40,587 bases of DNA from positions 1-40,587 of IMG/VR virus record IMGVR_UViG_2563366988_000007. The stretch is one strand, 5' to 3'. Within the stretch, counting starts at the first letter, position 1, and every line of letters starts with the position of its first letter. The DNA is from a virus. Lineage: Duplodnaviria; Heunggongvirae; Uroviricota; Caudoviricetes. The translations under genes were made by a program, and so were the position numbers. Shown one piece after another: positions 6,514 to 32,524 of this stretch. The notes under the pieces were generated by a model. That model was not told the DNA's origin. It made no database searches and was given only the letters and a program-made list of their open reading frames with translations.

Positions 6514-6617
6514 GTTAAATCTCCAGATAGTCGCAGCACCCGTTGCGCCGCATATCTGGTTATTCTATTACCTGTAAAACCACATATGGATAGAAAGGCT
6601 GTAAATACGAATAGATA

Positions 6618-6632
6618 TTACCTTTCAGGTAA
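6618..6632. promoter_or_regulatory. Operator-like palindrome TTACC-N5-GGTAA (ttacctttcaggtaa)
   Basis: Perfect 5+5 inverted repeat; identical 15-mer at 25228. Confidence 0.5.
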
Positions 6633-6669
6633 TTTGCAAAACGTGCTGGATAGCAAACAAATTATTTGC

Positions 6670-6689
6670 TACTGTATAAATATACAGTT
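6670..6689. promoter_or_regulatory. LexA box (SOS box) tACTGTataaatatACAGtt
   Basis: CTGT-N8(AT-rich)-ACAG matches LexA consensus; 20 nt upstream of SD/ATG of 6709 gene. Confidence 0.7.
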
Positions 6690-6708
6690 ATTGCATGGAG
6701 AAGATAAG

Positions 6709-6966
6709 ATGCAGCAGTATCACTATCCACTGGAAGACGGATTTACCGAAAGGATTCACACGCCGGGAGGCGTCAGGTCACTGGTGGAGGGATCGCACTT
6801 GATGAAATTACTCCGGGATCTCGATAAGGATGGATTTAATGTCGATGGCCCACTTGCCGAACTGACTGCACTGATTAACTACGTCACCAGCTCACAGATG
6901 TCTATGCGGGATCTGCAAACACATCTCGACTATTGTGCCGAACAATTACGAAAACAAACCAGATAA
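6709..6966 (+). CDS. Small SOS-regulated protein, candidate antirepressor (Tum-like logic); paralogous to C-terminal domain of adjacent Bro-N protein
   Basis: GGAG SD 8 nt upstream of ATG; LexA box in promoter; shared motifs HTPGGV/HSPSGV, AEL, RDLQTH/RDIQTH with 7282-7977 C-terminus. Confidence 0.55.
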   Translation: MQQYHYPLEDGFTERIHTPGGVRSLVEGSHLMKLLRDLDKDGFNVDGPLAELTALINYVTSSQMSMRDLQTHLDYCAEQLRKQTR

Positions 6967-7104
6967 GGTTTGCAATTACCAAGTGGAGTGCTTATATTTA
7001 CCTTTGAGATAAATTTACATCGCACTCCTCTTGTGCCATAGTAATCGGGCACTGGCAAAATCCAGTGCCGGGATTGGCGTCCCGGATTACTAAAAGGCGC
7101 ATTC

Positions 7105-7124
7105 ACCGCGCAAGCGGTTTTTTT
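7105..7124 (+). terminator. Intrinsic terminator (accgc-gcaa-gcggt plus T7)
   Basis: caccgcgcaagcggttttttt. Confidence 0.5.
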
Positions 7125-7281
7125 ATGCGTATAGCACGGCCACATTCGTATTATGGTGGGCTGTGTGGGGGCACCGAAAGGTGCGCCGGGTCCTTTTAGC
7201 CGGTTACGCCAACCCTGCACAGTTCACCACCAACCGATTGGCGTCGGTAGTGGTGATTAACCAGACTAAAAGGTAACCACT

Positions 7282-7977
7282 ATGACAGCTACAAAAAGCA
7301 CGTCCATTTTTTCTTTCGAATCCCAAGCCGATATACGGGTAATCGTCATTAATGGTGAGCCATGGTTTATCGCTTCAGATGTTTGTCGGGCTATAGGCAT
7401 AGCAAACCATCGAGATGCTGTTCGAAAACTTGATGATGATGAGAAGGGCGTCGCTTCAACCGACACCCCTGGCGGTGAGCAAGAATCGATCATCATCTCC
7501 GAGTCAGGCCTCTACACACTGATCCTCCGCTGCCGCGACGCAGTGACACCAGGCACTATCCCCTACCGCTTTCGTAAATGGGTTACAGGTGAGGTTCTTC
7601 CTCAGATCCGCCGCACCGGAAGCTACATTAAAAACTCGCTCCCGCAGGAAGAACGCATAAAGATGGTTGCCGACCAGGTAGCCAACGCCACGGCGTCAGC
7701 AGTAATGCAGGCGATGAAGATAGAGAACAAAACCTACAGCGCCCCGCTGAAGCCCGGCTACCGCAGCCTGATTCACTCGCCGTCTGGTGTTCTCGGCCTG
7801 ACGGAAAACTCACTGCTGATGAATCTGCTGAACCAGTTACAGGACGACGGGCACGACGTATCGGGCGCGGCGGCGGAGCTGACCACCATGTTCTGCTACA
7901 TCGTCGGTGTGAGCAAATGCCTGCGTGATATCCAGACCCACGCGGAATACATCAACGACAAGGCAGGGTTCTTCTGA
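7282..7977 (+). CDS. Antirepressor, Bro-N domain protein with C-terminal domain shared with 6709-6966
   Basis: Bro-N signature IRVIVINGEPWFIASDVCRAIGI...SESGLYTLIL; SD aaaagg. Confidence 0.75.
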   Translation: MTATKSTSIFSFESQADIRVIVINGEPWFIASDVCRAIGIANHRDAVRKLDDDEKGVASTDTPGGEQESIIISESGLYTLILRCRDAVTPGTIPYRFRKWVTGEVLPQIRRTGSYIKNSLPQEERIKMVADQVANATASAVMQAMKIENKTYSAPLKPGYRSLIHSPSGVLGLTENSLLMNLLNQLQDDGHDVSGAAAELTTMFCYIVGVSKCLRDIQTHAEYINDKAGFF

Positions 7978-8021
7978 CGGGCGGTGGCACAGGGATGTGC
8001 CTTTAAATAATTCTGTACAGA

Positions 8022-8050
8022 TTGCAGACTGTGGGTGAATAGCGTACTAT
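8022..8050 (+). promoter_or_regulatory. Putative sigma70 promoter (-35 TTGCAG, 17-bp spacer, -10 TACTAT) abutting operator palindrome
   Basis: Hexamers read directly; drives 8077 ORF. Confidence 0.35.
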
Positions 8051-8064
8051 TACCTTAAAGGTAA
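8050..8064. promoter_or_regulatory. Operator-like palindrome TTACC-N5-GGTAA (ttaccttaaaggtaa)
   Basis: Perfect inverted repeat immediately upstream of SD aaggagg. Confidence 0.5.
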
Positions 8065-8076
8065 AGGAGGCGCGAT

Positions 8077-8244
8077 ATGACAGCGTTGAAAAATCGTACT
8101 CAGCACAATGAACAAGCCAAGCAATGCTGGGATGTCATTGGAAAAGTTATGCTTGGCCGCGCAAGCAAAGAGCGCGACAAGGATATGGTTTACCAGACAG
8201 GAACATCTTTCAGCGACTTCAAGGCGGCATTTCGCTCCAAATAG
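8077..8244 (+). CDS. Small protein (55 aa), unknown function; not in ORF track (below length cutoff)
   Basis: Strong SD AAGGAGG 7 nt upstream of ATG; translation MTALKNRTQHNEQAKQCWDVIGKVMLGRASKERDKDMVYQTGTSFSDFKAAFRSK. Confidence 0.4.
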   Translation: MTALKNRTQHNEQAKQCWDVIGKVMLGRASKERDKDMVYQTGTSFSDFKAAFRSK

Positions 8245-8264
8245 AAGCACATCAGGAGTTTTCC

Positions 8265-8705
8265 TTGAAGTTTAACATTAGAATATCTAATAGTTTTCTA
8301 CATGGGGAAAGCAACACCCCTTTCGCTGTAGACGGACCTTTCCTTACTGATGATGAAATAAAAATCATACAAAGTTTTTTAGAGGATGTTGCCAATGGAA
8401 GGGCGCTTGTTGGAAAAAACAAGCCCTCGTGGGTTGATGATAACCATGATAAAATTCCCGGCTCAGACAATTATGAGCAAGAGAATTATTGGCATTATCA
8501 TTGTGGGCCAACATGGTATCCAAACACATTTAAGAATTATACCATTAACTTAAATTTCAACCCTGGCGGAAGGCATTCTAATGAATGCATTCATTATGCA
8601 AAAAATGATAATGAAATTGTCATTGTTGGATTTTCAAGAGAACACATACCTTTCCTTTCATCAGATGGAAACAACAATCCGCTTTTTAATGATGAAGAAG
8701 AATAG
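8265..8705 (+). CDS. AT-rich moron protein (146 aa from TTG start; alternative ATG start at 8124), unknown function
   Basis: AGGAG SD 6 nt before in-frame TTG; no internal Met; low-GC codon usage unlike flanking phage genes; followed by terminator. Confidence 0.4.
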   Translation: MKFNIRISNSFLHGESNTPFAVDGPFLTDDEIKIIQSFLEDVANGRALVGKNKPSWVDDNHDKIPGSDNYEQENYWHYHCGPTWYPNTFKNYTINLNFNPGGRHSNECIHYAKNDNEIVIVGFSREHIPFLSSDGNNNPLFNDEEE

Positions 8706-8726
8706 CCCGCGCTGCGGGCTTTTTTG
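8704..8726 (+). terminator. Intrinsic terminator (gcccgc-gct-gcgggc plus T6)
   Basis: agcccgcgctgcgggcttttttg directly after stop codon. Confidence 0.6.
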
Positions 8727-8797
8727 TGGACGAAACAAAAGTCAGTGCTACACTCATTGACGCCACATTGAGGTGGCTTATAGATGGAAATTTCACA

Positions 8798-8959
8798 ATG
8801 AAAAAAGCATTTGCTGCACTGTTCGTTTTGTTGTCTCTGGTAGCTTCAACTCAGGCCTTTGCCGGTCGTTGTCAGCACGACAGCGACACTGCTGCTGACG
8901 GCTCCCGCTGCGGTGGGCGTTCTGCGGACTCCCGTCCGGGCGGCGGTGGCATTCGTTAA
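8798..8959 (+). CDS. Small secreted peptide (signal peptide plus about 30-aa Cys-containing mature part)
   Basis: MKKAFAALFVLLSLVASTQAFA signal; weak SD; inner ATG of ORF 8726-8959. Confidence 0.35.
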   Translation: MKKAFAALFVLLSLVASTQAFAGRCQHDSDTAADGSRCGGRSADSRPGGGGIR

Positions 8960-8981
8960 AAACAAGGCCGCGAAAGCGGCC
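8955..8981 (-). terminator. Intrinsic terminator for minus-strand virion operon (ggccgc-tttc-gcggcc then ttgttttt)
   Basis: Hairpin with T-tract on minus strand immediately after last minus-strand ORF. Confidence 0.45.
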
Positions 8982-8982
8982 T

Positions 8983-8994
8983 GTGACATGTCAC
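8983..8994. repeat. 12-bp perfect palindrome GTGACATGTCAC (copy 1 of 3)
   Basis: Exact palindrome; also at 26219 and 28670. Confidence 0.6.
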
Positions 8995-9001
8995 GCTCAC
9001 G

Positions 9002-9142
9002 TTATGACAAGCCTATGTACCCTGCTACGCCAGATAATATCATAATAACTGCAACAGCAAATTCGCCATCGTCAATGATACATTTACGGTTCATAACGCC
9101 AAGTGCAACAAGCGCAAACACAACAAGAATAAAAGCAATCAT
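9002..9142 (-). CDS. Small hydrophobic two-TM protein (46 aa), not in ORF track
   Basis: ATG 10 nt after stop of 9152-11626 gene; translation MIAFILVVFALVALGVMNRKCIIDDGEFAVAVIIMILSGVAGYIGLS. Confidence 0.3.
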   Translation of the reverse strand: MIAFILVVFALVALGVMNRKCIIDDGEFAVAVIMILSGVAGYIGLS

Positions 9143-9151
9143 TTCTCATCC

Positions 9152-11626
9152 TTATTGCGGAGTGACATCCTGTGGTCGCCACCAGTATGTCTGGTTAAAC
9201 TCTTTCTTCGAACGTTGCTCCATTTTACGCAAATAACCTGGTGAAAAATACTCCTGCATCTGGTTAAAGATCATGTGATCGAGAGCCGCCTTCAAGTACC
9301 AGAGATTCGCACCTGGCATCAAACCTTTCCCCAGCTTCACCAGATCACCACCAGTCTGCTCACTCTTCCCTTCCACAGCATTTAACGGTATGCCCTGAGC
9401 AATCTTCACTACGTCATCAACCAGACCAGCTACCGGGCCAAGCATCGACGCCAGCGCGCCGCTTCCGTACCTAGTGTGATCTGACAATAAAAAGTCACCG
9501 TAAAGGCCAAGGCCACCACCTTTCAGTAGAGCACCAAGCCAGAATTTTGCGGCACCTTCTCCTGTCATCTCTCGAGGATTACGACCAGACGCAAGGTCGT
9601 TAAGTTGCTGCGACAAAGCGCCAAGAATGGTCGTACTGGCAATAAACGTCGCAATATATGCCGCACGCCCACCAGCAGACGGCATACCCATAGCGCGTGA
9701 CCAGTGACGCATAACAACCGAGATAGGGAACGATTTAAACAGGAAAACACTTCTCGTTAATTCACCTTTCCATGTTCCACGCTGAATACCAGAACCGGTT
9801 ATCAGTTGCTCACGTGCTCCCGGTGTAATAACAGCCATATCAACTTCTTCAGTTACGGCACCGAGCAGTTTACGCATTGCCTCAAATTTCACGCGTTCAG
9901 GCTCACCAAGATGTTTAACTGCTGAATCAGGGATACGCATAATGCTTTCCGGTGTCAGCATCGTATTATTACCGTTCCCCCAGTCCTCCTGTTTCGCCAG
10001 CTTCCATACGCTCCAGTCTGTGTCAGTAATCCCTTTGCTTTTCAGGATACGAAAATCAGAGTCATCGAGGCTACGAAGGTCTGGTGTCCGTGACACTACT
10101 TCTCCCAGGCTTCCCATCATGGTTACGCCATAGGCGCGCTTGTGCGCATCTGACCATGCTGTAAGCCCACTGGCACGCATTACCGCCGTTGCCGCCCAAC
10201 GAGACACTGACGGCCCCATATTATCCATCGCCCAGCGGTTAACGCTGCCAAGTAGAGATTCCATCGCCAGACCAGCGCGGCGCGCCCGCGCAAGTTCTGT
10301 ACGGTTCGTTGGGTCCATAGCTTCAAGCTGGTTGCGGAATAACTGGTTCATTGGAAGGTTGGTAACCTTCGCAGACAGATACATGGTTCCAAGATCAGAG
10401 AACGATGACAGCAACGCGGATCCGAGTCTGCTGGCAACCAGCCAGTTGCGGATATTGTCAGACCATCGCGCGATGTGCGGATTCGCTACAGGCTGTGTCT
10501 TTCCGGAAATAAAGTTGTACAGATTCTCTGTGTTGTTCGCCAGCCGCTCGACTTTACCGGTTTTACTCGGGTTAGCTGTTGCCGTTTCTGCCTTCACCTG
10601 ATCAAGAAGAGAGCGGAAAACATGATCGGGGTTTGGGCCATATGTTTCCACCAGTGCAATATCTTTACTGATACCTTCCAGGTGACCGACCATGATTTCC
10701 CATAGAGAGCGATCGCCATAAAGTTGCTGATATTGCAGATAGGAATCTGCATCTTTGAAATGTATCTGTCGTGATGCATTACCACGGTTAGCACGTGCGC
10801 CGGAAATTCGCATTCCGGTATCAGTAAGCTTATTCAGCCCACCAGTAGCGATCGTGTTATAAGCCTCTCCAAGAAATGAAGACAACTCGGCATCGTTCAT
10901 CAGTTGTCCATCGGCTCGGATATAATATTTGCGATCCAGCTTACCTATAACATCGCTAACCCACTTATCCTTTGATACTGCCCCAACCTTTTCCATAGAA
11001 TGATGTTGAGGGATCCCCCAGTTTTCGAGATAGCCAATGTCCCCACCAGCATCATTAAACCGGCGGCGCAGCAGCTCTGTAACTTCTCTCCACGCCTTAG
11101 CACCGTTTCTTGCTTTAGCATTGCCAGTATTTTGCCCCCGCATTTCATATACCAGGTCACGTACGCCCGCTTCATCTTCAAACAGACCAAAAAAGCGAGG
11201 ATCAACTGCTTCGAATGCCTCCTGCAATTGACTCAATGCATAATCACGGGTGGCTTTTGTTCTGGATTCAACAGAGAGGAAATTAGATTTACCGTCTGCA
11301 TTAAAAGCTATAGTACGGTTAAGAGCGCCAAGTTTCCCATCAGCCCCTTGATAGCTATTGATAAATTTATCCAATCTCTGACGCGCGGCTATAGTGAGAG
11401 CCACACGACGTTTCTTTAATGCCGCTTCTCGCTGTAATTCTTCAGATGCCAATTGTGCTGCTCGATATAGCCGCTCTGATTCGGAAAGTTGTCTCCACGA
11501 CATCGGGTCATCACGAGCAATGGAGCGCATATTTCGATAAATGCGGTCTTCAATGTTCTGTATTTCTCGCGCCGTTAACGTGCGCTGCGCCGCCTGCTGG
11601 ACCGCTTGTATACATTCCTGTCTCAT
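9152..11626 (-). CDS. Large internal virion/ejection protein
   Basis: 824-aa ORF in virion operon, T7 gp15/16-like position. Confidence 0.55.
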   Translation of the reverse strand: MRQECIQAVQQAAQRTLTAREIQNIEDRIYRNMRSIARDDPMSWRQLSESERLYRAAQLASEELQREAALKKRRVALTIAARQRLDKFINSYQGADGKLGALNRTIAFNADGKSNFLSVESRTKATRDYALSQLQEAFEAVDPRFFGLFEDEAGVRDLVYEMRGQNTGNAKARNGAKAWREVTELLRRRFNDAGGDIGYLENWGIPQHHSMEKVGAVSKDKWVSDVIGKLDRKYYIRADGQLMNDAELSSFLGEAYNTIATGGLNKLTDTGMRISGARANRGNASRQIHFKDADSYLQYQQLYGDRSLWEIMVGHLEGISKDIALVETYGPNPDHVFRSLLDQVKAETATANPSKTGKVERLANNTENLYNFISGKTQPVANPHIARWSDNIRNWLVASRLGSALLSSFSDLGTMYLSAKVTNLPMNQLFRNQLEAMDPTNRTELARARRAGLAMESLLGSVNRWAMDNMGPSVSRWAATAVMRASGLTAWSDAHKRAYGVTMMGSLGEVVSRTPDLRSLDDSDFRILKSKGITDTDWSVWKLAKQEDWGNGNNTMLTPESIMRIPDSAVKHLGEPERVKFEAMRKLLGAVTEEVDMAVITPGAREQLITGSGIQRGTWKGELTRSVFLFKSFPISVVMRHWSRAMGMPSAGGRAAYIATFIASTTILGALSQQLNDLASGRNPREMTGEGAAKFWLGALLKGGGLGLYGDFLLSDHTRYGSGALASMLGPVAGLVDDVVKIAQGIPLNAVEGKSEQTGGDLVKLGKGLMPGANLWYLKAALDHMIFNQMQEYFSPGYLRKMEQRSKKEFNQTYWWRPQDVTPQ

Positions 11627-11631
11627 TTAAT

Positions 11632-13434
11632 TTAACCTCTCAAGAAACACGCCACAGCGACATCAAACAGGCTGGAATCCTGTATTGCCTGCTCACTTTC
11701 CCTGTTCGCTTCATCCAGTACTTCACGCGCGCTGCGCGATTGTGGATTACCATCATCATCCAGCACGGTGATTATCATGTCCGGATATTCAAGCAGCGAG
11801 TCTTCAGCTATACGCAGATCAATATCTCCTGCCGGATCTGCCATCATTTTTTGTTCTGTCTGTTGCAATATCTTACCGGGCTCAAAAGGAGCTACTTCGT
11901 CTGGCGTCCTGACCTCTGCTGTTTTATAGAATGAAACAGCCTGAGCATTAAGTTCACTTTCTGCCTGCTGTCTCCGAGCCAGTTCTGCTCGAGCTTCAAA
12001 AAACTGACCGCCAGGCTCATGCGGTGCCAACGCGTTACGGGAAAATTCCAGGCGTTCTTGTGCCTGCCGGATTCGTTGGTCAATATCCCGAAGTCTGGCC
12101 TGTTTATCTGATCGAGCACGAGACAAAGCTTTACCGCTACCGGCTGGATCTTCTGCAAGAATTTGTGCGCGCTGTTCAGTGAGATTTTCAATAATTCGTT
12201 GGCTATTAGCGATTTCAGACTGGTAAACCTGTCTATCGCCACGCGGCAAAAGCTGCGCGGCCTGTTCTTCAAGCAACCGATTTTCTATAGCGCGCGCCGT
12301 TACTCCATCATCTACAGATGACAGAGCCTCATTAACTGCCTGAGACAGCAGACTCTTGCGTCCAGGAATTTCACTGAAAGATGCAGACTCAACAATGCTG
12401 GCAACGTCTACAGGTCTCCCCTGGCTAACATCAGACATGGCTTTTCGCAGAGCCTGAATGTGCGAATTACGCGAAAGCACGTTGATCGGCACGCCGGGAG
12501 CAATATCAATTTCAGCATGATGAGCGGCATTCGCCGCCAGTGCAGCATCGATATCAACTGGTGAAAAATTTGGTGCGCTTGTAGACTCGCCGCGAGAGTT
12601 AATAAATCTGCCGACACCACCAAACGCCACCCCAAGAACAGCATCAATAGCAATTGCCTGTCGATCCAACACATCATACTGGTTAGCCATTTCGCTATAG
12701 CCACCATCACGAAGCGTTTTTGCAGTAAGCCCACGCTGTGCCATACCGAACGCAATATTTGTACCTGCGGCATAGGCAATATCTGGCGTTGCACGTACTG
12801 CTGTTGCTGCGGCGCGTCGCACTGAACTTTCACCCGTCCGCGCAAGCTGAGCCGCCACACCTTCCGCCAGCGCACCACCAGCACGTAACCCGAGGCTCAT
12901 AGGGATCAGTGTTCCGGCACCAGCAGTAATACCCTGCACTAATCCCGCTTCCTGCGCCGTCCTGAAATCAACACCCTGTGCTGTAAGCCGTTCAAACTCA
13001 GAAAAACCCTGTAGAGAAGTTACCGCCGCAGCACCTCCGACCGGACCACCGAGCGTTGTACCGACAACAGCCTGCCCGCCCATATCGAACAACCCATAAA
13101 GGACCTGCCCGGCGGTTCCGGTTGTCGCGGCATCAGGCGTCAGCCGCTTAACCTGCTGCTCTGCTAGTTTTCTCTGCTCAGCAATGTATGAAACTGAAGT
13201 GTCATTGATCGAGGTGTTTTCGTTAACAAACTGAGCAATCGGGGATACGATTTTATCCATCCCTGCCCATAGCAACTGATCTGGCTTTGCCACCAGCCCG
13301 GAGTACAAACCAGACAATGCCGCTCCTACAGCATTGTCGAAAAAACCAACATCGCTGTTAAAGCCAGCTGGATTTGATGCTGCTTCGTCAAGCTGCTGAT
13401 TCTGGTTTACTGGATTAAGGCCAAAGTAACTCAT
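11632..13434 (-). CDS. Internal virion/ejection protein
   Basis: 600-aa ORF, Gly/Ala-rich N-terminal half, position in virion operon. Confidence 0.55.
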   Translation of the reverse strand: MSYFGLNPVNQNQQLDEAASNPAGFNSDVGFFDNAVGAALSGLYSGLVAKPDQLLWAGMDKIVSPIAQFVNENTSINDTSVSYIAEQRKLAEQQVKRLTPDAATTGTAGQVLYGLFDMGGQAVVGTTLGGPVGGAAAVTSLQGFSEFERLTAQGVDFRTAQEAGLVQGITAGAGTLIPMSLGLRAGGALAEGVAAQLARTGESSVRRAAATAVRATPDIAYAAGTNIAFGMAQRGLTAKTLRDGGYSEMANQYDVLDRQAIAIDAVLGVAFGGVGRFINSRGESTSAPNFSPVDIDAALAANAAHHAEIDIAPGVPINVLSRNSHIQALRKAMSDVSQGRPVDVASIVESASFSEIPGRKSLLSQAVNEALSSVDDGVTARAIENRLLEEQAAQLLPRGDRQVYQSEIANSQRIIENLTEQRAQILAEDPAGSGKALSRARSDKQARLRDIDQRIRQAQERLEFSRNALAPHEPGGQFFEARAELARRQQAESELNAQAVSFYKTAEVRTPDEVAPFEPGKILQQTEQKMMADPAGDIDLRIAEDSLLEYPDMIITVLDDDGNPQSRSAREVLDEANRESEQAIQDSSLFDVAVACFLRG

Positions 13435-23240: not shown

Positions 23241-24922
23241 TGTGATTGCCCACCCTGACCACTAACTGCATTCGCCATAGCTGACAAAACACTCGGATCC
23301 GAAGTTTTAGCTTCACTTAGCGTCTTGGCACCCTGTGCCGCCGCCATCCCCATCGCCATCATTTGTTGCTGCTGTTGTTGCTGTGCCCGTTGCTGGCGAG
23401 CCTGCTCAACCTGTTCCTGCGGAACAATGACGGTTGGAGACACTCCGGACATATCAGCGAATGCATCGATCGCCTGATCAACGTTGAGTTTGTCGAGAGC
23501 TTCTGGTTTCGCTTGCGCAAGTTGACCAATGAAGTTGACCGTAGACGCCAGACTGGACAGGCCGATAGACTTCTGCGCCTGAGCCATGACGGAAATGTAT
23601 TCGACCTTCAGGGGCATACCTTCCATCGCGTCAGGCGGTGGCGGCAGCATGTTTTTACGCACCATCATCGAGAAAGCGCGGTCAATGAGAGGATTAAGAC
23701 ATTCGTCGTTCAGACGCTCCAGAACCGGCCCCAACATCAGAAGTTTTTCTTCTTTCATTTCGATCACCGCTTCAACAGGCATCGAGCGGGTATTGATGTT
23801 CTGCAACATCATGAACAGATCGACAAAGTAGGCGCTGTTAATGATTTGACGGGTGTCCTGAATGTCTGCCACCAAATCTGCTGTACTGGGGTTAACCAGA
23901 TAAGCAGGCCTGAAACCATCCTGACCAGTAATCTGATCGATATACGTGATGTCGCCAGGAAGAAGGGAGGCACGCTGATTCTTGAGGGAAGTCGGAGCAA
24001 CCATCGGCGGATTGGTGGCTTTATCAATCAACTGCGACTTGCGCTTCTGGAGAAGCTGCAATGCCTTAACAGGTCCAAGCGCCAGCATACCCGGGCATGA
24101 TGATCCATAAACATCTTCGCCGTTAACTTCCCAGCGCGGAGCCATAATTGGAAACTCATCGAATCCGGACTCACGCAACAACTTGTCGTTATCGCCACCA
24201 ACCTCGTAATAAACCGATTTGAATGGCTTGTTCTTGCTATCCAGCTTCGATGTATCGCGGTCAATGTTCGGGTAAACCGAATGCATCACTTCAATCCACT
24301 TCTCGTAGGTGCCGCTTTCCCACATGCTTTTTACGGATTCGCTGACGTTATTTAGCCCGAACTCCTGAACAAGCTGACGAACAGTCATAGAGAACTTGCG
24401 AAAACAGGTGTCCACACTGCCACGAGGTGAGTTAGCCAGGTAGTAACTGCCTATCGGGAATGGCATTGTGCGAATGATGTCCTCGTCATCCTCCAGCACC
24501 GCCATTGCACCAGTGCTGTATGTGCCGAGGCTTCCGTATAACTGCGGAAGAGACTGGTAGAGATTCGACTTATTGAACATATCGTTCATGCGGTTCTGCA
24601 CCGCCTCGAGCCACAACTTAACAGGACCATAATCCATCATTTCAGGATCTGGCGTAGCCAGGCGAAACCACGGACGCGCAGGGCTTGTGATGCCTGACAT
24701 CATGCCGCTGGCGAGAGTGCGCGCCGCCATAGTCCCGGTCGAATCAATAATGCGTGTATTGCGTCGATCGTTACGGTTGACTTCAGAAGTCAGAAAGCGG
24801 GAACCACGCGGGTTGATGTAATCACTCAACTCGCGCCAGTGCGGCTCGAACGACTGACGCTCGCTTTCAAGTTGTGCGAACTGTTTGTTCAATCGCTCTT
24901 TAGTTGTTTCCGCCATTTCCAT
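23237..24922 (-). CDS. Portal protein
   Basis: 561-aa ORF directly after terminase block; poly-Q C-terminal tail. Confidence 0.75.
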   Translation of the reverse strand: MEMAETTKERLNKQFAQLESERQSFEPHWRELSDYINPRGSRFLTSEVNRNDRRNTRIIDSTGTMAARTLASGMMSGITSPARPWFRLATPDPEMMDYGPVKLWLEAVQNRMNDMFNKSNLYQSLPQLYGSLGTYSTGAMAVLEDDEDIIRTMPFPIGSYYLANSPRGSVDTCFRKFSMTVRQLVQEFGLNNVSESVKSMWESGTYEKWIEVMHSVYPNIDRDTSKLDSKNKPFKSVYYEVGGDNDKLLRESGFDEFPIMAPRWEVNGEDVYGSSCPGMLALGPVKALQLLQKRKSQLIDKATNPPMVAPTSLKNQRASLLPGDITYIDQITGQDGFRPAYLVNPSTADLVADIQDTRQIINSAYFVDLFMMLQNINTRSMPVEAVIEMKEEKLLMLGPVLERLNDECLNPLIDRAFSMMVRKNMLPPPPDAMEGMPLKVEYISVMAQAQKSIGLSSLASTVNFIGQLAQAKPEALDKLNVDQAIDAFADMSGVSPTVIVPQEQVEQARQQRAQQQQQQQMMAMGMAAAQGAKTLSEAKTSDPSVLSAMANAVSGQGGQSQ

Positions 24923-25137: not shown

Positions 25138-25227
25138 ATCAATGACTCCGTACGCAATTAAATTATTACCAATTTAACCACATATGATTTATTTATCGTA
25201 GAAGGTTGACATTTAACGCGTTAATTA

Positions 25228-25242
25228 TTACCTTTCAGGTAA
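25228..25242. promoter_or_regulatory. Operator-like palindrome TTACC-N5-GGTAA (ttacctttcaggtaa) preceded by TTGACA
   Basis: Identical to 6618 site; TTGACA at 25206-25211. Confidence 0.5.
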
Positions 25243-25564: not shown

Positions 25565-25641
25565 GTGGCATTAGCTCAGTTGGACAGAGCAACCGCCTTC
25601 TAAGCGGTTGGTCGCAGGTTCGAATCCTGCATGCCACGCCA
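25565..25641 (+). tRNA. tRNA-Arg, anticodon UCU
   Basis: Cloverleaf folded by hand: acceptor GTGGCAT/ATGCCAC, D-arm GCTC/GAGC, anticodon stem ACCGC/GCGGT with loop CTTCTAA, T-arm GCAGG-TTCGAAT-CCTGC, discriminator G, encoded CCA. Confidence 0.85.
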
Positions 25642-25684
25642 GAATCACGCCTAAGGACCGTGATGCCAGAAGTTCCAGGTGCTT

Positions 25685-25727
25685 GGCGGTGATAGTTTCC
25701 CTTGAAGGACTATCACCGCCCTTTTTA
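25685..25727 (+). terminator. Intrinsic terminator downstream of tRNA (12-bp stem ggcggtgatagt/actatcaccgcc plus T-tract)
   Basis: Read directly. Confidence 0.5.
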
Positions 25728-25804
25728 CAGCAGGACGCCATTGCGATGACTTCATGCTGTAAACCCGTACAGCCACGGAAGGCATAACTCATTGCTTCCA
25801 GTTC

Positions 25805-25828
25805 GCCCGGTTCGCCGGGCATTTTTTT
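25805..25828 (+). terminator. Hairpin with UUCG tetraloop (gcccgg-ttcg-ccgggc) followed by T7
   Basis: Read directly; abuts SD of gp49-like gene. Confidence 0.4.
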
Positions 25829-25839
25829 AAGGTGAGATT

Positions 25840-26214: not shown

Positions 26215-26218
26215 CACC

Positions 26219-26230
26219 GTGACATGTCAC
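26219..26230. repeat. 12-bp perfect palindrome GTGACATGTCAC (copy 2 of 3)
   Basis: Exact; flanked by AACACC as at copy 3. Confidence 0.6.
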
Positions 26231-26232
26231 AA

Positions 26233-26262
26233 ACAGCCAGCCGATGAGCTGGCTTTGTTTTA
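26233..26262 (+). terminator. Intrinsic terminator (cagccagc-cgatga-gctggct plus ttgtttt)
   Basis: Read directly after gp49-like gene. Confidence 0.45.
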
Positions 26263-26304
26263 TCCTCACCAGAGGATATCAGCAGTATTATCCCCACCAG
26301 CGGA

Positions 26305-27780
26305 TTAAGCATAAGGGTCATAATCCGTTATGGCCCTTCCCTGCTGGCTTTGCTGTCCAGGTATATTTATGCGTTTCGAGACCGGGAAAGCAAACGTCAG
26401 CAGTAGCGCATCGCCTTTACCAGGAGAACGCCCAAGTCGCTCTTTGATATCTTCCTTCGGTTCGATAACGATTTTACCGTCCACTCGAACTTTGTACTCT
26501 GCCGCCGACAGGTCGTCTGCTGTTTCCTGGTCATCCAGCATGCCGCCCAGCCTCAGCCATGTCTTGCATGAATTGAACATCTCCCCACGCTTGTTGAGCA
26601 TCTGCGGGTCAGTAGACGCGCCACCGAACGGAACAAGTTGCCATGTACGACCCCAGCCGTCACCGATTGACTTCAAACCGGTTCCGTAACCGAAGTCGAT
26701 GAACACCGCGTCAGCCTGATACTGGTCTTCAAAGTCAGCGATACGCTTCGCCATAATCAGATCGTCGGTAGTCTTGTTGCCAGTCCACAGCACCTTACTG
26801 TGTAGCCCCTGCCGCAGGTATATCACAGCGTCATCAACGCCGGAGTATGCCGGGTCAACGCCGATTATCACCGGAGCATGTGCAACCTGCGCAGCGGTTA
26901 CCACCCGTTTCATTGCCTCGTCAGTAAGACCGGTAGGGATAAACTGCAATTCAGATGCATCAGGGAATATGCCACGCACACGGATTTTAACGAAGTCGCT
27001 GTCTTCCCCGTAGTCATCAACCCATTTCTGCAACTGCTGTTTGTTAGTGCCTTCCACCGTCCGGCTGTCAATCTGCGCAGTTTTCCAGCGGTGTTTATAT
27101 TTGCGGAAACATTCGCGAAAACGCCCGGTGTTACGTGTAGGGTTTCCGAACGCCACCCAGATAATCTCAGTGTCTTCGTCCGTAAGCGCACCCTCGGCAA
27201 CTTCCCACACCAGATCCGCAATGTTCGACGCTTCATCAAACACCACGATGATGCGTTTGCGCTCGTTGTGTAGTCCGGCGAATGCCTCGGTGTTGTGCTC
27301 AGACCAGGGTATTGCGTCAGCCCGCCACCGCTTGTCGTGCCCTAGGTCATTGCTGTACATCGCGGTAGCGGTACAGGTAAACCAGTCTTTCGTGATAGCA
27401 AGGTTCGACCACTTGATAATTTCCGGCCAGGTCTTCGTTCGTAGCTGGTTGTCGGTGTTGGCGGTCACCACGACCTTACAATCCTCGCAAGTGGACATGC
27501 CCCAGTTGATCAGCATTGAGATGAATGCGGATTTACCAATACCGTGACCAGAAGCGCGTGCCAGCATAAGCGGCTGATAGCGCGTCTCTGGATTCTGCAG
27601 GTGATCACGTATCTCTCGGAACGCATCAGCCTGCCACTGACGTGGGCCGGTGGCATGTGCCAGTTCAGTCCCCTCTTCCCCCCATGGGAACGCATAGAGG
27701 GCATAGCCAAGCGGATCGTGAGTGAACCCTGCAATATCCTCGATTAACTGCTCTTCAGGAGATAACGCTGTATCTGTCAC
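26305..27780 (-). CDS. Terminase large subunit
   Basis: Walker A-like ASGHGIGKS, ATPase plus C-terminal nuclease layout, 491 aa. Confidence 0.85.
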   Translation of the reverse strand: MTDTALSPEEQLIEDIAGFTHDPLGYALYAFPWGEEGTELAHATGPRQWQADAFREIRDHLQNPETRYQPLMLARASGHGIGKSAFISMLINWGMSTCEDCKVVVTANTDNQLRTKTWPEIIKWSNLAITKDWFTCTATAMYSNDLGHDKRWRADAIPWSEHNTEAFAGLHNERKRIIVVFDEASNIADLVWEVAEGALTDEDTEIIWVAFGNPTRNTGRFRECFRKYKHRWKTAQIDSRTVEGTNKQQLQKWVDDYGEDSDFVKIRVRGIFPDASELQFIPTGLTDEAMKRVVTAAQVAHAPVIIGVDPAYSGVDDAVIYLRQGLHSKVLWTGNKTTDDLIMAKRIADFEDQYQADAVFIDFGYGTGLKSIGDGWGRTWQLVPFGGASTDPQMLNKRGEMFNSCKTWLRLGGMLDDQETADDLSAAEYKVRVDGKIVIEPKEDIKERLGRSPGKGDALLLTFAFPVSKRINIPGQQSQQGRAITDYDPYA

Positions 27781-28373
27781 TGATTGCCATCCTGACGTTC
27801 TTTCAGTCTCTTCCTGGCTGCCGCTATGCGATCAGCAATTGTCACATTCACATTAACATCCAGGCGTTCTTTGAATGCGTTGACGTCGACGTGCTTACCA
27901 ATCAGTTCGAGGTTCTTCACCTTGTCAGGCCATTTAATTTTTTTGAGGATTGTCTCTATCGAATCCTCGTTCATGTTCATGATGGTCGATGACAGATCAA
28001 AGCCACTAAGCGTAGTGCGCCAGATTTTCGGCCACTCGCGGATTGGCTTAAGGCTCCCATCGTCGTTGAGGATGTCGATCACGTCCATCTGGTCGATCTC
28101 CACCAGGCGCATGAGAACGTAATCAGCACTGACGCGCATTCGTTTGTTGCGCTCTTCCATCAGCTCGGCAATCCGTTTTTGAATGCGTTCATCGCGCATC
28201 ATGAGACTGGCTTTAACTGCCGCTGTATTTGGGGAGAATCCTGCGTTAATCGCAGCCTGAGTCTGGTTTTCAGGCGTTTGGATGTATGACTGGCAATAAG
28301 CCTCCTGCATTGCTGTTAGTGGCTTAAATTGCGTTGATTTGCGTTTATAGGTTTTAGGTTCAGCAGGCATCAT
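27777..28373 (-). CDS. Terminase small subunit (start chosen at MMPAEP; ORF extends to 28451)
   Basis: HTH-like motif TQAAINAGFSPNTA typical of small terminases; overlaps TerL start. Confidence 0.65.
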   Translation of the reverse strand: MMPAEPKTYKRKSTQFKPLTAMQEAYCQSYIQTPENQTQAAINAGFSPNTAAVKASLMMRDERIQKRIAELMEERNKRMRVSADYVLMRLVEIDQMDVIDILNDDGSLKPIREWPKIWRTTLSGFDLSSTIMNMNEDSIETILKKIKWPDKVKNLELIGKHVDVNAFKERLDVNVNVTIADRIAAARKRLKERQDGNQ

Positions 28374-28447
28374 AACCACCGTGGTAATAGTTACCGTTGT
28401 GGTAATAGTACCATGCAAAATAAAGCCGCCATAGTTGGCGGCAGTAT

Positions 28448-28660
28448 TCAAAGTCCATCAAATTCATCGTAAAAACTCTCGTCAAGATACCCTTCCCATT
28501 TACCGCGAATGAAAATTACATCCTCGCCGCAAGGGTGCTGACTGTCGATAACTATATCCCTCCTGGCGCAACCATACTTATGCATGAGAAATTTAACCTC
28601 TTTCGGAAAATTTGCTGAGTTATCTCTCATATCTTCAAGGTCGTAGCGTATTTTTGGCAT
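28448..28660 (-). CDS. Hypothetical protein (70 aa from ATG with AGGTG SD; ORF extends to 28681)
   Basis: SD gaaggtg 5 nt upstream of ATG at 28660. Confidence 0.4.
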   Translation of the reverse strand: MPKIRYDLEDMRDNSANFPKEVKFLMHKYGCARRDIVIDSQHPCGEDVIFIRGKWEGYLDESFYDEFDGL

Positions 28661-28669
28661 AACACCTTC

Positions 28670-28681
28670 GTGACATGTCAC
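28670..28681. repeat. 12-bp perfect palindrome GTGACATGTCAC (copy 3 of 3)
   Basis: Exact; immediately 5-prime of SD of 28448-28660 gene. Confidence 0.6.
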
Positions 28682-29019
28682 ACTATTAATTTCGTTTCAT
28701 GCCAGCCTTTAGTCACCCAGCATTGCGAGTCACCATTACACGGGCATGAATTAACGGGAACTCTCTCGCCGCACTTACCGCAAAGTTTTCTGCTGATCGA
28801 TTTTATACGCCCGCGCACACGTGCATCATCCTGGCGGATCAGCAGCGCGATGTACTCGGCCATTTCATAGGGATCGTGACCAGGGCGCCGGGCGGCGCAG
28901 TTCCGCGCCAGCATTTCCTGCTCCTGCTTATCCAGAACCAGTTCAATTTTGCGCTCACCGGCGGCGGACTGCCGAGCGCGCTGCGCGGCTTTGCGCTCTG
29001 CTGCTGATTTAGCCATCAA
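28678..29019 (-). CDS. Hypothetical protein with C-terminal Cys cluster (possible zinc-binding regulator)
   Basis: CGKCG...CPCNGDSQC motif; basic N-terminus. Confidence 0.4.
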   Translation of the reverse strand: MMAKSAAERKAAQRARQSAAGERKIELVLDKQEQEMLARNCAARRPGHDPYEMAEYIALLIRQDDARVRGRIKSISRKLCGKCGERVPVNSCPCNGDSQCWVTKGWHETKLIV

Positions 29020-29290
29020 TATTCACCTTTATAGCGAACACCTTTACCGGTTTATCGCCGAAGTGCGGATGTGTGATTGTCTTGATTTCATATCCGTCAT
29101 ACGGGACGTCAATTCTGCGGCTGGAATCGTCGCGCTTCGGATATCCCTTTGTGATAATCAGGCGGTCATACTCGCGGAACATAATTCGCTTATTCCAGTA
29201 GTCATTACACAGGCGATACTCTTCCGTTTTCTCTCCGCGAATCATGGCATCGAAGTATTCACCTTTAACGGCAAGTTGCAGGTTAGCCAC
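29009..29290 (-). CDS. Hypothetical protein, tentative ASCH/PUA-like fold
   Basis: 93-aa ORF; weak motif resemblance only. Confidence 0.4.
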   Translation of the reverse strand: MANLQLAVKGEYFDAMIRGEKTEEYRLCNDYWNKRIMFREYDRLIITKGYPKRDDSSRRIDVPYDGYEIKTITHPHFGDKPVKVFAIKVNIDG

Positions 29291-29570
29291 GACCTTCCTC
29301 CTTTGGCTTGTGAATTTGTATCGTCATGCCGCTTTGAGTGGTGACTACAACGACAGAACCAGGCTGAAGACTGTTAAGATTGAATGCTTCGTAAAACGAA
29401 GCCAAGGCCAGCGCTTTTTTATTCTTTCGGTTCCACCAACGCCATCCATTGCTACAGGCTACACTGACAATCCACTGTCCACTCCTGTAAGCCATATAAA
29501 ACCAGATGAGCAAAACCTGAATGAATGCTATCCAGTCAATAATCGTATATTTCGCGAAGGAGACCATCAA
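29283..29570 (-). CDS. Small membrane protein, unknown function
   Basis: Trp-rich hydrophobic N-terminal helix, 95 aa. Confidence 0.4.
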   Translation of the reverse strand: MMVSFAKYTIIDWIAFIQVLLIWFYMAYRSGQWIVSVACSNGWRWWNRKNKKALALASFYEAFNLNSLQPGSVVVVTTQSGMTIQIHKPKEEGRG

Positions 29571-30331
29571 TTAACCTCCTGCGGCGGTTCCGGTAGAGGC
29601 ATCCAGTACAAGGCGTTCCCTAACCACGATAAAGTGCCGTCGCTCAACTCCACGTATTCCCCTTGTACCTGTCCTGCCATATACTCGCCGTGCTTTGAAT
29701 AAATTAAAATCCAATCATCTTGAGCGGGCATTCGCTCACTACAGCTTATCCAACCATCCGGAGTTACCGGATAGTTGCCAGCCTGAACAGTAGGCATATC
29801 AGGACCTTTGCGAATCGCCCTGGCAAGATCGATTGGGTCGTCGTACAACCAGTCACCTGTTTGCGGATGATTGGCTTCTGCCAATTGTGCAGCCCACTCC
29901 AGGCCGTCTTTGTGTCCTTGCAGATAGTCCAGCGGTAACTCATCACTATTACTTACAGGTTCGGCCTGAAGCATGGCGGCGCGGCAGGCGTTCCAGCCTC
30001 TCACCTCTGCAATAGCGGCAACAGCATCGACCGCGTACATTTTAAGAGGGTTAGGCATTGGTTTTTCTTCAGGTACTACTGGCACTGGAGGGGCGGCATA
30101 AACAGGAATAACGTCCGGTTGCTCTTTATTGCTTTCATCCGTTAAAGCCCAGAATAATTTCCCGGCCGGATGTTTGAAAATATAAGCAACTGGTTCTGCT
30201 TCCAGTGATGCCAGCGCAATTTTGTATACTTCCAGATCCATTTGTGCAGTTACTAAATCAGGATAACGATCCATAACCGTTATATTGCGCTTAATCATCT
30301 CTATTAATTGTTCTTTAGTAAAAGTGGTCAT
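29567..30331 (-). CDS. Phage protein with C-terminal DUF551-like domain
   Basis: C-terminal GWISCSERMP...YWMPLPEPP motif. Confidence 0.45.
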   Translation of the reverse strand: MTTFTKEQLIEMIKRNITVMDRYPDLVTAQMDLEVYKIALASLEAEPVAYIFKHPAGKLFWALTDESNKEQPDVIPVYAAPPVPVVPEEKPMPNPLKMYAVDAVAAIAEVRGWNACRAAMLQAEPVSNSDELPLDYLQGHKDGLEWAAQLAEANHPQTGDWLYDDPIDLARAIRKGPDMPTVQAGNYPVTPDGWISCSERMPAQDDWILIYSKHGEYMAGQVQGEYVELSDGTLSWLGNALYWMPLPEPPQEVN

Positions 30332-30341
30332 TCGTTATGCC

Positions 30342-30539
30342 TCAATACACAAAATCTGTTTTAAATTCATGGTTACATTCTGGACAGCATGTTTCGTAAC
30401 CTTTTATTTCTTCACATGCCTGTTTTGCTCCAGAAAAATCCCAGAAATCTGGATCACAAAGCAGATCGAAATTGTGACCGCATTTTGGGCATTCGGTATC
30501 AAGTGACAGATTCCAGTAAGCAGTGGTGTTTTTATCCAT
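30342..30539 (-). CDS. Small zinc-ribbon protein
   Basis: CPKCGH...CCPECNH two CxxC pairs, 65 aa. Confidence 0.45.
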   Translation of the reverse strand: MDKNTTAYWNLSLDTECPKCGHNFDLLCDPDFWDFSGAKQACEEIKGYETCCPECNHEFKTDFVY

Positions 30540-30540
30540 A

Positions 30541-31038
30541 TCAGTCTCCTTTGATGCGAATGCCAGTGGTACTCATTCTCCTGATTTCCCAGAGCACACG
30601 AGGAACACCACCGTTTCCGACCGGATCGCGTTTACTCCGCAGGGCGACGCTTGATTCCGCCCAGCTTTTTCTTGGAGGAAGCTCTTTCACACGAACAAAA
30701 CCAGCTGCGCGAAGAGATGCTCCTGATTCATCTGCCTGGGTGTACGTAATACAACGTTGATAACCCATAGCCTTTGCTGCCCGCCAGACAGCACCATAAA
30801 GCGCGCTGTTAGCGTTGCGTTCTCCTGTGGTACATGTGCGATTTACTTCAAGCGTTAATCCATCGTCCAAATGTCGTGCAACAGGTCTACCGGCTGTCGC
30901 CACACCTATCAATTCTCCGGCATCATTTCTCAGACCAATGCTGAATTTATGCCCCACCGGGGGTTTATTGTGTCGGTGATGTCTGGATATAAACGCCTTC
31001 GCAACACGAAGAGTAACCGGTGAAATCTGCACTCTCAC
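30541..31038 (-). CDS. Conserved phage protein, unknown function (GTG start)
   Basis: 165-aa ORF; shares duplicated 3-prime end GIRIKGD with upstream neighbour. Confidence 0.45.
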   Translation of the reverse strand: MRVQISPVTLRVAKAFISRHHRHNKPPVGHKFSIGLRNDAGELIGVATAGRPVARHLDDGLTLEVNRTCTTGERNANSALYGAVWRAAKAMGYQRCITYTQADESGASLRAAGFVRVKELPPRKSWAESSVALRSKRDPVGNGGVPRVLWEIRRMSTTGIRIKGD

Positions 31039-31520
31039 TCTCCTTTGATGCGAATGCCTGTTGCAATGCTGTTTATGATGCTGTCAGTGCATGGGGTAGA
31101 AAGCTGGGCATCTCCAGCAATTTTCATGACCTCAACATCTGCATATCGAATACCGAGGTGTATCAGACCGGCTATGCCTGACTTAAGCCGAGCATTTTCC
31201 ATAAATAGAACTTTTGCCCGCTGTTTTTCTGCTTCAAGCTCAACGCGCAGCTTCCCTACCGTTAGCGCAATATCCTCGTTCTCCTGATCGCGGCTTTTGA
31301 TGTATTGCTGGTTCCTTTCCCGTTCATCCAGTAGTGCCAGCACGGTTTCTGGTCCGGCCAGAAATTTGAAGGCGTTGAGCGCATCAATATCCACACCGTA
31401 ATCTTTAAGTTCCTGTTCACTTAACAAATCATCATCAGCTGGCAACATTAACAGGCGTTCCATTGCTGGAATTGCACGTTCCGCCGCCTCACGCAGTGCC
31501 TGGTAATTAATTTCGCTCAC
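31035..31520 (-). CDS. Ead/Ea22-like protein
   Basis: N-terminus MSEINYQALREAAERA, acidic coiled-coil. Confidence 0.45.
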   Translation of the reverse strand: MSEINYQALREAAERAIPAMERLLMLPADDDLLSEQELKDYGVDIDALNAFKFLAGPETVLALLDERERNQQYIKSRDQENEDIALTVGKLRVELEAEKQRAKVLFMENARLKSGIAGLIHLGIRYADVEVMKIAGDAQLSTPCTDSIINSIATGIRIKGE

Positions 31521-32035
31521 TGGTTGCCTCCTTTGCGAAGCTGGGCAGCAAAGTCAACTAACCACTCAGTCATTTCAACCTTCCCTACCAGGTCTGAACC
31601 AGGGTGCATACAGCAATCACTCTGCGCCGCTTTGAAATCCTTATACTCATATTCTTGGGCCACCAGATTTTTTGCAGCTTCTATAGCAGCATCCACCCCC
31701 TGCGCCCGCACTTCAGACAGGAAAGCATCGGTGGCTGGCATATTTCCTGTTGCCTTCATTGCCTCCAAAATAACCAGAACGCCATCTCGCCCAATCTCCT
31801 CGCAGATAACCTCGGTGCTGTCGCCAACAACATCGCAAAATGCCTGAACTGCTTTACGAGCCAGCGCATTCTCCGCAGCCAGCGCATTAGCACGCACCAG
31901 TTGCACTTCCAGTTGCGTTGCCAAATAGCTGATCAGCTTTGCCACACTGCGCATATCAACGGCACCACATTCTGCTTTCAGTTCCGAAGCCATCTCATGC
32001 CCGGCGGCAACTAACCCTTTGATATTACTTTCCAT
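31517..32035 (-). CDS. Ead/Ea22-like protein
   Basis: Acidic helical protein in Ea22 position, overlapping start/stop. Confidence 0.4.
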   Translation of the reverse strand: MESNIKGLVAAGHEMASELKAECGAVDMRSVAKLISYLATQLEVQLVRANALAAENALARKAVQAFCDVVGDSTEVICEEIGRDGVLVILEAMKATGNMPATDAFLSEVRAQGVDAAIEAAKNLVAQEYEYKDFKAAQSDCCMHPGSDLVGKVEMTEWLVDFAAQLRKGGNQ

Positions 32036-32096
32036 CTTTACCCTCGCTTATCCACATAACTTATTGATTACATTGATAACTAAAAAGATCGTCGAT

Positions 32097-32444
32097 TCAG
32101 AACTCTTCGATGTTCCAGCCACCACCTGCTTTCTTTGGCTTAACCGTTACCCCGATGATTCGGAACGGATACTGATCTGCGGCGACTTTGGTTTTCACTC
32201 TGGCGTCATCGGTCCAGAATCCCCCTTTCACTTCGTGCAGTTCCATCTCGCCGGTGGCGAGCATCACAGCAAAATCTGGCGTATAGAACGTGTTGTCAGC
32301 TAACCGCAGCTTGATACCCTCAAATCGATACCAGACGATTTCTCCTGCACGTTTACGCAGCTCAAGGTGCTGGCAATACGCAGATTCTGTTTTGTTCATC
32401 TGGCCTGTTTTGAGTCGACCAAGAGCCTGCATCTGTTTTCTCAT
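32097..32444 (-). CDS. DUF1064-like phage protein
   Basis: 115-aa ORF, motif memory only. Confidence 0.4.
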   Translation of the reverse strand: MRKQMQALGRLKTGQMNKTESAYCQHLELRKRAGEIVWYRFEGIKLRLADNTFYTPDFAVMLATGEMELHEVKGGFWTDDARVKTKVAADQYPFRIIGVTVKPKKAGGGWNIEEF

Positions 32445-32447
32445 GAT

Positions 32448-32462
32448 TTACCCCTTAGGTAA
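32448..32462. promoter_or_regulatory. Operator-like palindrome TTACC-N5-GGTAA (ttaccccttaggtaa)
   Basis: Perfect inverted repeat 4 nt upstream of start codon of 32097-32444. Confidence 0.45.
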
Positions 32463-32509
32463 TTAAAAACCACATAAGACACGAAATCAATAGATTTTAG
32501 AATATTTTA

Positions 32510-32524
32510 TTACCTCTAAGGTAA
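32510..32524. promoter_or_regulatory. Operator-like palindrome TTACC-N5-GGTAA (ttacctctaaggtaa)
   Basis: Perfect inverted repeat downstream of P gene. Confidence 0.45.

Follow-up and report, generated by a model that had tools for sequence, protein, structure and literature searches.

The DNA analysed here (the window) is IMG/VR record IMGVR_UViG_2563366988_000007 over its full length of 40,587 nucleotides (nt). It is the genome of a Uetakevirus, i.e. an epsilon15/phiV10-like temperate podophage, and over long stretches it is 97-98% identical to phiv142-3, phiV10, and HEMP4, three Escherichia phages of that genus. Its genes are mostly on the minus strand: a main block runs from the cro-like gene (34749-34519) to about position 9152 and holds replication (DnaT-like and lambda-P-like), accessory, terminase, head, and tail genes; it is followed by the tailspike gene (6513-3394) and the lysis cassette (3087-1290). 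The plus strand carries the repressor gene rep (34904-35488), the early-left operon, and the antirepressor (ant) operon (ca. 6700-8700). Our subject is a composite module present in three copies, M1 (6567-6632), M2 (25166-25242), and M3 (32448-32524), in which palindromes of the form TTACC-N5-GGTAA, or halves of them, are combined with a non-palindromic 11-mer that reads CATATGTGGTT on the gene strand, i.e. the minus strand. Each module is situated directly upstream of the first minus-strand gene of a transcription unit: the tailspike gene at M1, the head genes at M2, and the DUF1064-to-terminase unit at M3.

On rereading, the three modules are present as described in an earlier note on this DNA. 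The pattern AACCACATAWG, the plus-strand form of the 11-mer, has exact matches at 6578, 25176, and 32468, all on that strand and in the modules only, where 0.03 would be expected; exact TTACC-N5-GGTAA sites number nine in the window, again versus 0.03 expected (dinucleotide shuffles). The plus-strand order is a TTACC half-site (6568, 25166) or full site (32448), 5 nt, and the 11-mer, with a full palindrome 29 to 41 nt 3' of the 11-mer in each module. The functional strand is nonetheless the minus strand, on which the element faces its downstream gene; the earlier note had read the opposite, non-functional one. Copies of the 11-mer with up to two mismatches occur at chance level (23 vs 20), and among them a one-mismatch copy, AACCATATATG at 3148-3158, stands out by lying just upstream of the lysis cassette. 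This fourth copy, with no palindrome nearby, had been overlooked in the count of three. All four copies are on the late-gene strand, their 3' ends 23 to 64 nt upstream of the first start codon of the unit. When the modules are aligned their similarity extends beyond the palindrome, and therefore the objection that the earlier note had raised against itself, namely that only the palindromes are alike, falls away. Recent duplication and chance were both ruled out as the origin of the copies: the spacers differ in length and in sequence, and the blocks between them are conserved across genera.

M1 consists, in gene-strand order, of a palindrome, 29 nt, the element CATATGTGGTT, 5 nt, GGTAA, the hexamer TAGAAT, 48 nt, and the ATG of the tailspike gene (6513). 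The palindrome TTACCTTTCAGGTAA (6618-6632) is centred near -70, has an annotated ortholog in epsilon15, and is situated upstream of the ant operon as well, which is divergent and under LexA control. The element (6578-6588, minus strand) occupies -33 to -23 of the tailspike promoter; the GGTAA block (6568-6572, minus), which resembles a half-site for the repressor Rep, follows 5 nt later at -17 to -13; and the -10 hexamer is found at 6562-6567 (minus). A set of 97 unique variants of this region, retrieved via the coding sequence only and anchored on the -10, displays three blocks of high conservation: the operator at -77 to -63; tAT.CATAT.tGGtT at -37 to -23; and, with very high conservation, GGTAATAGAAT at -17 to -7. 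Conservation is low from -62 to -40, in the 5 nt after the element, and downstream of the -10. The core of the element is CATAT-N2-GGTT, since its two central positions are free to vary. The block GGTAAT is almost invariant (GGTTAT in a few variants), and rare variants preserve the total length from CATAT to GGTAAT. The hexamer reads TAGAAT, TAAAAT, TACAAT, or TAAACT, summarised as TAnAAT, which is how a real -10 should vary. This promoter has no sigma-70 -35 (the best reading being ttCATA), and a simple sigma-70 promoter scan returned no promoter at either M1 or M2. Around the -10 of M1 there is also an inverted repeat, formed by the element and CATATCTGGTT (6551-6561, plus) and reading CATATGTGGTT-N16-AACCAGATATG on the gene strand; it is confined to E. 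coli-type variants, other genera retaining just CCAGA near the predicted start.

The order at M2 is very similar: palindrome, 41 nt, CATATGTGGTT, 5 nt, GGTAA, TAATTT, and the first ATG of the head operon (25137). The palindrome (25228-25242) is centred at about -80 to -82, the element lies at 25176-25186 (minus), and GGTAA (25166-25170) together with two overlapping -10 candidates, AATAAT and TAATTT, fills 25160-25170 (minus). The palindrome also overlaps the -10/start region of a divergent plus-strand promoter, whose -35 TTGACA (25206-25211, plus) is 16 nt from the TTACC of the operator, so that TACCTT would serve as its -10. This TTGACA-to-TTACC spacing is conserved in epsilon15, Tyrion, and a Klebsiella prophage, and the divergent promoter faces small plus-strand open reading frames (ORFs) and a tRNA-Arg(TCT) gene (25565-25641, plus; ARAGORN and Rfam agree on the strand). 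IMG/VR phages with a 99-100% identical first head-operon protein (loci L006-L085) present 59 distinct variants of the M2 region (orthologous to 25190-25225), in which two hypervariable patches of 4-5 nt each are located in the spacer of the divergent promoter and beside TGTCAA, the rest being fixed.

A canonical -35, TTGACA-like and 16 to 18 nt from the -10, is found only at M3, and neither at M1 and M2 nor at the lysis promoter. M3 reads, on the gene strand: hairpin, palindrome, 19 nt, TTGATT, 6 nt, CTTATGTGGTT, 5 nt, palindrome, 3 nt, and ATG (32444). The upstream operator (32510-32524) is centred near -62; the -35 TTGATT (32485-32490, minus) corresponds to CTATTGAtt in the consensus of 108 unique variants; and the element CTTATGTGGTT (32468-32478, minus) falls inside the promoter spacer. 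The presumed -10, TTTAAT (32467-32462), overlaps the downstream operator (32448-32462), the two together covering 32448-32467 (minus), and this operator contains the Shine-Dalgarno sequence AAGGGG of the DUF1064 gene. The complete consensus of the 108 variants is: operator, 19 nt, CTATTGAtt, 6 nt, C.wwTrTGGwT, (t)ttaa, operator, atcATG. The unit of replication genes ends just before M3 at a terminator-like hairpin, GCGCGATAGCGC and then T7 (32537-32556, minus), which we read from the sequence and which a terminator scan of the window did not call; its block GCGC...AGCGCATTTTTTT is conserved.

At the lysis cassette the element reads CATATATGGTT (3148-3158, minus); the ATG (3087) comes 60 nt after it, no operator is near, and a candidate -10, TACTAT (3142-3147, minus), abuts it. 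A collection of 56 unique lysis promoters is a mosaic upstream of the element, and conservation sets in precisely where the element starts, with an operator or without one: an operator 45 to 48 nt upstream occurs in 34 of the 56 and none within 120 nt in the other 22, while the element is present in all of them. The -10 of the Salmonella-type lysis promoters is TATGAT, 7 nt after the element (TATAAT in one variant); TACTAT directly adjoins the element in promoters of the E. coli type. Two features of the leaders may be recorded here: a 12-codon upstream ORF (MHSKRWSLCQLS) runs into the beginning of the first lysis gene in epsilon15 (24757-24830; L002) and the Salmonella-type lysis leaders, and a possible 13-bp hairpin, entered as an RNase III site in the epsilon15 record, has variants lacking clear compensatory changes.

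The architecture that the earlier note proposed to look for in related phages is conserved across the genus. A position weight matrix built from orthologous sites of other genomes only ranks the four sites of the window at the top (18.2 bits for 3148-3158; 18.0, 18.0, and 14.5 bits for the three modules), with nine hits of at least 13 bits in the window versus a mean of 1.5 in randomised sequence. The extra hits at 6551 (plus), 35589 (minus), 16768 (plus), and 9081 (plus) were set aside, being either not conserved in epsilon15 or located within coding sequence. Epsilon15, SPN1S, and Tyrion have the element at all four orthologous sites; in epsilon15 the gene-strand copy is CATATGTGGTT upstream of both gp3 and the lysis genes, CATATAAGGTT upstream of the tailspike gene, and CATTTGTGGTT upstream of gp43. 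The Klebsiella prophage has it at M1, M2, and M3, the stretch compared ending short of the lysis promoter, and phage BUCT711 has it at M1 and M3, with AATATGTGGTT at M2 and with its lysis genes directly after the tailspike gene. The spacers between the conserved blocks diverge among these relatives, and all matches of the degenerate pattern CWTWTRWGGTT in the compared genomes are on the late strand and at these sites. The more distant Cobetia phage Carin1 (portal protein 50% identical) contains neither palindrome nor element. When upstream regions were drawn from IMG/VR independently of the motif, by patterns restricted to the coding sequence or to the downstream operator, the element emerged as a sharp block of conservation. 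Taken together, this supports the 11-mer as the upstream boundary of promoters most of which have no -35, always facing its gene and independent of operators. A mini-ORF starting from an ATG inside the element was ruled out because the epsilon15 and Tyrion variants (CATATAAGGTT, CATATACGGTT) have no ATG, and comparison by eye with the sites of DnaA, IHF, CRP, sigma-54, and sigma-E/28/32, with PhoP/CpxR-type direct repeats, and with the P2 Ogr dyad and the T4 MotA box produced none that fits the four copies. A full-text literature search for the 11-mer sequence returned unrelated primer-type matches only, the epsilon15 and phiV10 genome papers being outside its coverage; the element has apparently not been described so far.

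The earlier note could assign nothing in the modules to a known element, and for the palindrome this has to be corrected. Sequence and homology identify the TTACC-N5-GGTAA palindromes as operators of Rep, a tetrameric repressor of the SPC32H type. Operators of this SPC32H/epsilon15 type were reportedly dealt with by Kim & Ryu in 2013 and by Kim et al. in 2016. In the epsilon15 RefSeq record (NC_004775) ATTACC-N5-GGTAAT sites are annotated as 'repressor' protein_bind features, upstream of the genes for the small terminase and the tailspike, of gp3, and of the gene that comes after the replication genes, as well as in the immunity region. The window has the same palindrome at the same genome positions, and its Rep, a predicted palindrome binder with an HTH_3 domain, is a full-length homologue of SPC32H Rep (PDB 5D50; E 4.1e-42). 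Its operators are palindromes of 15 to 17 bp, (A)TTACC-N5-GGTAA(T), strongly over-represented as in that family; additional sites with one or two mismatches cluster in the immunity region and before the small terminase gene. Three exact and near-exact operators (34786, 34817, 34834) are found between the cro-like gene and rep, and a pair 62 nt apart (35546/35608) brackets the early-left promoter TTGACA-N16-TAATCA. The geometry of M3 is like that of this pair: a sigma-70 promoter flanked by operators whose centres are near -62 and 0. By contrast, the 11-mer is absent from the feature annotation of the epsilon15 record and does not have the form of a Rep operator, being non-palindromic and persisting at the 22 lysis promoters without an operator.

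Two further regions with Rep operators deserve mention. The ant operon seems to unite a LexA box (6672-6687), Rep operators (6618, 8050, and a one-mismatch site at 6998), and an antisense RNA like that of P1/P7 immI: Rfam matches at gathering level to isrK (77.9 bits, 7049-7124, plus) and to the C4 antisense RNA (77.7 bits, 7149-7234, plus) stand just upstream of the gene for a Bro-N antirepressor (7282-7977). Within 28356-28440 (minus) the small terminase gene is preceded by a terminator-like hairpin, GCCGCCaactatGGCGGC with a T-run, after which come two adjacent operators (28391-28405, exact; 28373-28387, with one mismatch); the 11-mer is absent from this upstream region, and the start codon is probably the ATG near 28356 rather than the TTG at 28451.

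We propose that each module is the control region of one minus-strand late unit of a Uetakevirus prophage, and that the 11-mer would be a separate determinant, fixed in orientation and common to the DUF1064-to-terminase, head, tailspike, and lysis promoters. To the reading that it is a specialised promoter determinant, probably the site of a phage-encoded factor, and is gated by Rep, we give even chances, because the element is found at the edges of promoters that mostly have no -35, faces its gene, and needs no operator; because the opposite-strand genes split the late region into four units and thus require separate late promoters; and because a Pfam scan of 20 regulatory and early-region ORFs detected no antiterminator domain of the Q type. 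The pairing of a Q gene with a single late promoter, as in the control of lambda, is not found in the window, and what is found, a shared, orientation-fixed element upstream of late operons with a poor -35, is the general hallmark of activator-dependent late promoters. At the tailspike and head promoters the element stands in the position of the missing -35 region, followed by 5 nt, GGTAA, and the -10. A phage-encoded factor, produced after inactivation of Rep, would recognise it and turn the dispersed operons on together, whereas in the lysogen the late promoters would be held shut by Rep, sitting both on the upstream operator and on the half- or full site beside the -10. The operator-free lysis promoter could likewise be silent in the lysogen if it depends on a factor made only once Rep has been inactivated. 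Observed directly are the anatomy of the modules, their conservation, their position relative to the genes and to the -10, the missing -35, and, at lysis promoters, the independence from operators; starts of transcription at the modules, binding by such a factor, and an activating effect are what we infer from them. The idea of a specialised promoter class put forward in the earlier note stands as regards its fixed architecture, genus-wide and at the promoter positions of late operons; the second DNA-binding factor it suggested is represented by candidates, and its interpretation is partly supported as a whole.

The candidate for that factor in the main block is a ribbon-helix-helix (RHH) protein of 112 amino acids (aa) with a C-terminal Cys motif (28678-29016, minus), a member of the epsilon15 gp49 family (phrog_536, 'transcriptional regulator'); a 77-aa ORF separates its gene (29016-28678) from the small terminase gene. 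Its 120 best matches, 78-97% identical, come from several enterobacterial genera; Cys79 and Cys82 (a CxxC pair) are invariant and Cys99 nearly so, which suggests that the protein binds zinc, and that it is a DNA binder is plausible. An alternative candidate is the PerC-like protein of 99 aa encoded in the early-left operon (38200-38499, plus). In this connection the LEE1 promoter of E. coli O157:H7 (L470, 383-393) contains ATATATGATTT 5 nt upstream of the P1 -35 TTGACA; it matches the element at 9 of 11 positions, with the conserved GG missing, and given the PerC-like gene of the phage it constitutes a weak lead. Pch has been reported to counter H-NS silencing, with no defined motif given (PMC4764244). 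Somewhat more tentatively we would see in CATAT-N2-GGTT the site of an uncharacterised late switch, by which a small phage protein turns on four dispersed operons at once; its best candidate would be the protein with RHH and zinc motif, the alternative being that a Cro-like or a PerC-like protein acts together with the upstream operators, which are phased. The switch protein could also shut its own promoter at M3, where the site is in the spacer.

Several points weigh against the proposal of a factor-dependent promoter determinant. Between the element and the best -10 candidate there are 10 nt at the tailspike promoter, 8 to 10 nt at the head promoter, 7 nt at the Salmonella-type lysis promoters, and 0 to 1 nt at M3 and the E. 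coli-type lysis promoter (the -10 being a presumed one at the latter two); neither classical activator sites nor core promoter elements usually vary in this way. M3 has a good -35 of its own, TTGATT, with the element in the spacer, where it could act negatively or not at all; as this promoter looks self-sufficient, a protein bound there could repress rather than activate. In the literature that we reached we found no transcription start data for these phages, no factor has been linked to the element, and nothing ties the RHH protein to it. Phage N15 has a homologue of that protein and no motif, a comparison that is uninformative because the two proteins are just 35% identical. Homologues with 57-64% identity (P0296 and P0312; loci L468 and L469) sit elsewhere, in lambdoid-like prophages, as the last gene of an early-left-type operon beside int and not beside a small terminase gene, and the motif was not found in these prophages. 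The same prophages also carry a longer PerC-like gene after their replication genes.

The constant distance of 5 nt between the element and a Rep half- or full site at M1 to M3, together with the phasing of the operators, speaks moreover for another explanation: TGGTT-N5-GGTAA, made up of the 3' half of the element and the next block, would be a weak, non-canonical second Rep site, which a Rep tetramer bridges to the upstream palindrome, looping the promoter, so that the 11-mer would belong to the apparatus of repression. From upstream operator to pseudo-site the distance is 50 nt at M1, 61 nt at M2, 52 nt at M3, and 53 nt at the epsilon15 lysis promoter, i.e. about 5 or 6 helical turns, like the operator pairs 62 nt apart at M3 and at 35546/35608, and tetrameric binding to palindromic sites has been reported for SPC32H Rep (PMC9638917). 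We nevertheless regard this explanation as unlikely: TGGTT is unlike TTACC and the conserved CATAT block is left unexplained; the 22 operator-free lysis promoters and the window's own keep the element unchanged; GGTAA is replaced by TGTAT or TGCGG at lysis promoters; and GGTTAT occurs in some tailspike variants.

Ordinary sigma-70 promoters would dispense with a dedicated factor altogether, the 11-mer then being a weak -35 (ttCATA) with its spacer, read by the host RNA polymerase. The -10 hexamers are clear, ttCATA matches TTGACA at four of six positions in some variants, and M3 with its normal -35 needs no help. Against this, the most conserved positions of the element (C, T, T, and GGTT) differ from the sigma-70 consensus, the spacer would come to 14 nt at the Salmonella-type lysis promoters, the promoter scan is negative at M1 and M2, and conservation across genera, as at M3, is not expected of spacer sequence; we think it rather doubtful that host polymerase alone accounts for the element. 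That the element acts in RNA, as a leader structure or an RNase III processing site at the 5' end of the late transcripts, appears highly improbable. The RNase III site predicted in the epsilon15 record (24755-24817) does begin inside the lysis copy, where the 13-bp hairpin can be drawn from GUUUAUUGUGUAU and AUGCACAGUAAAC; but the tailspike element is upstream of the -10 and therefore not transcribed from that promoter, natural variants in the arms of the hairpin are uncompensated, and the four leaders share no common structure.

Prophages of the genus Uetakevirus are frequent in E. coli, O157 among them, and in Salmonella, Klebsiella, and Enterobacter; they carry serotype-converting genes, and their lysis-lysogeny switch (Rep, Ant, and LexA) has already been studied; a description of the activation of their late genes was not found. 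An element shared across four host genera defines the late transcription units, predicts where transcripts start, and offers a direct assay for finding the late regulator. If the more tentative reading of a late switch is true, it would be a new system of late activation in a widespread group of enterobacterial prophages. Outside phages of the epsilon15/phiV10 type the element is of modest significance.

Among known systems, the late promoters of P2, 186, and P4 are activated by the zinc-finger proteins Ogr, B, and delta at a consensus TGT-N12-ACA centred near -55. As here, dispersed late operons have promoters of their own with a poor -35 and an orientation-fixed element, and a small phage protein with a Cys motif is at hand; the Uetakevirus element, however, is at -33 to -23 or closer with a variable distance to the -10, and the candidate protein has an RHH fold unrelated to Ogr. 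On reading the module sequences we saw no TGT-N12-ACA dyad near -55. At the middle promoters of T4 a MotA box centred at -30 replaces the -35, which likewise places a phage-specific element in the -35 region ahead of a normal -10; the sequence differs, the operons concerned here serve late structural and lysis functions in a temperate phage, and domain scans of the small early-region ORFs detected no MotA or AsiA family. Dual regulation by phi29 p4 or lambda CI offers a third parallel in upstream operators on one helical face (near -62, -70, and -81 here), although there is no evidence here of activation by Rep or by the Cro-like protein, and many lysis promoters lack an operator. While matching the sequence definition of neither, the composite would by analogy work like the late promoters of P2 and 186 or the middle promoters of T4, overlaid with the operators of phage immunity.

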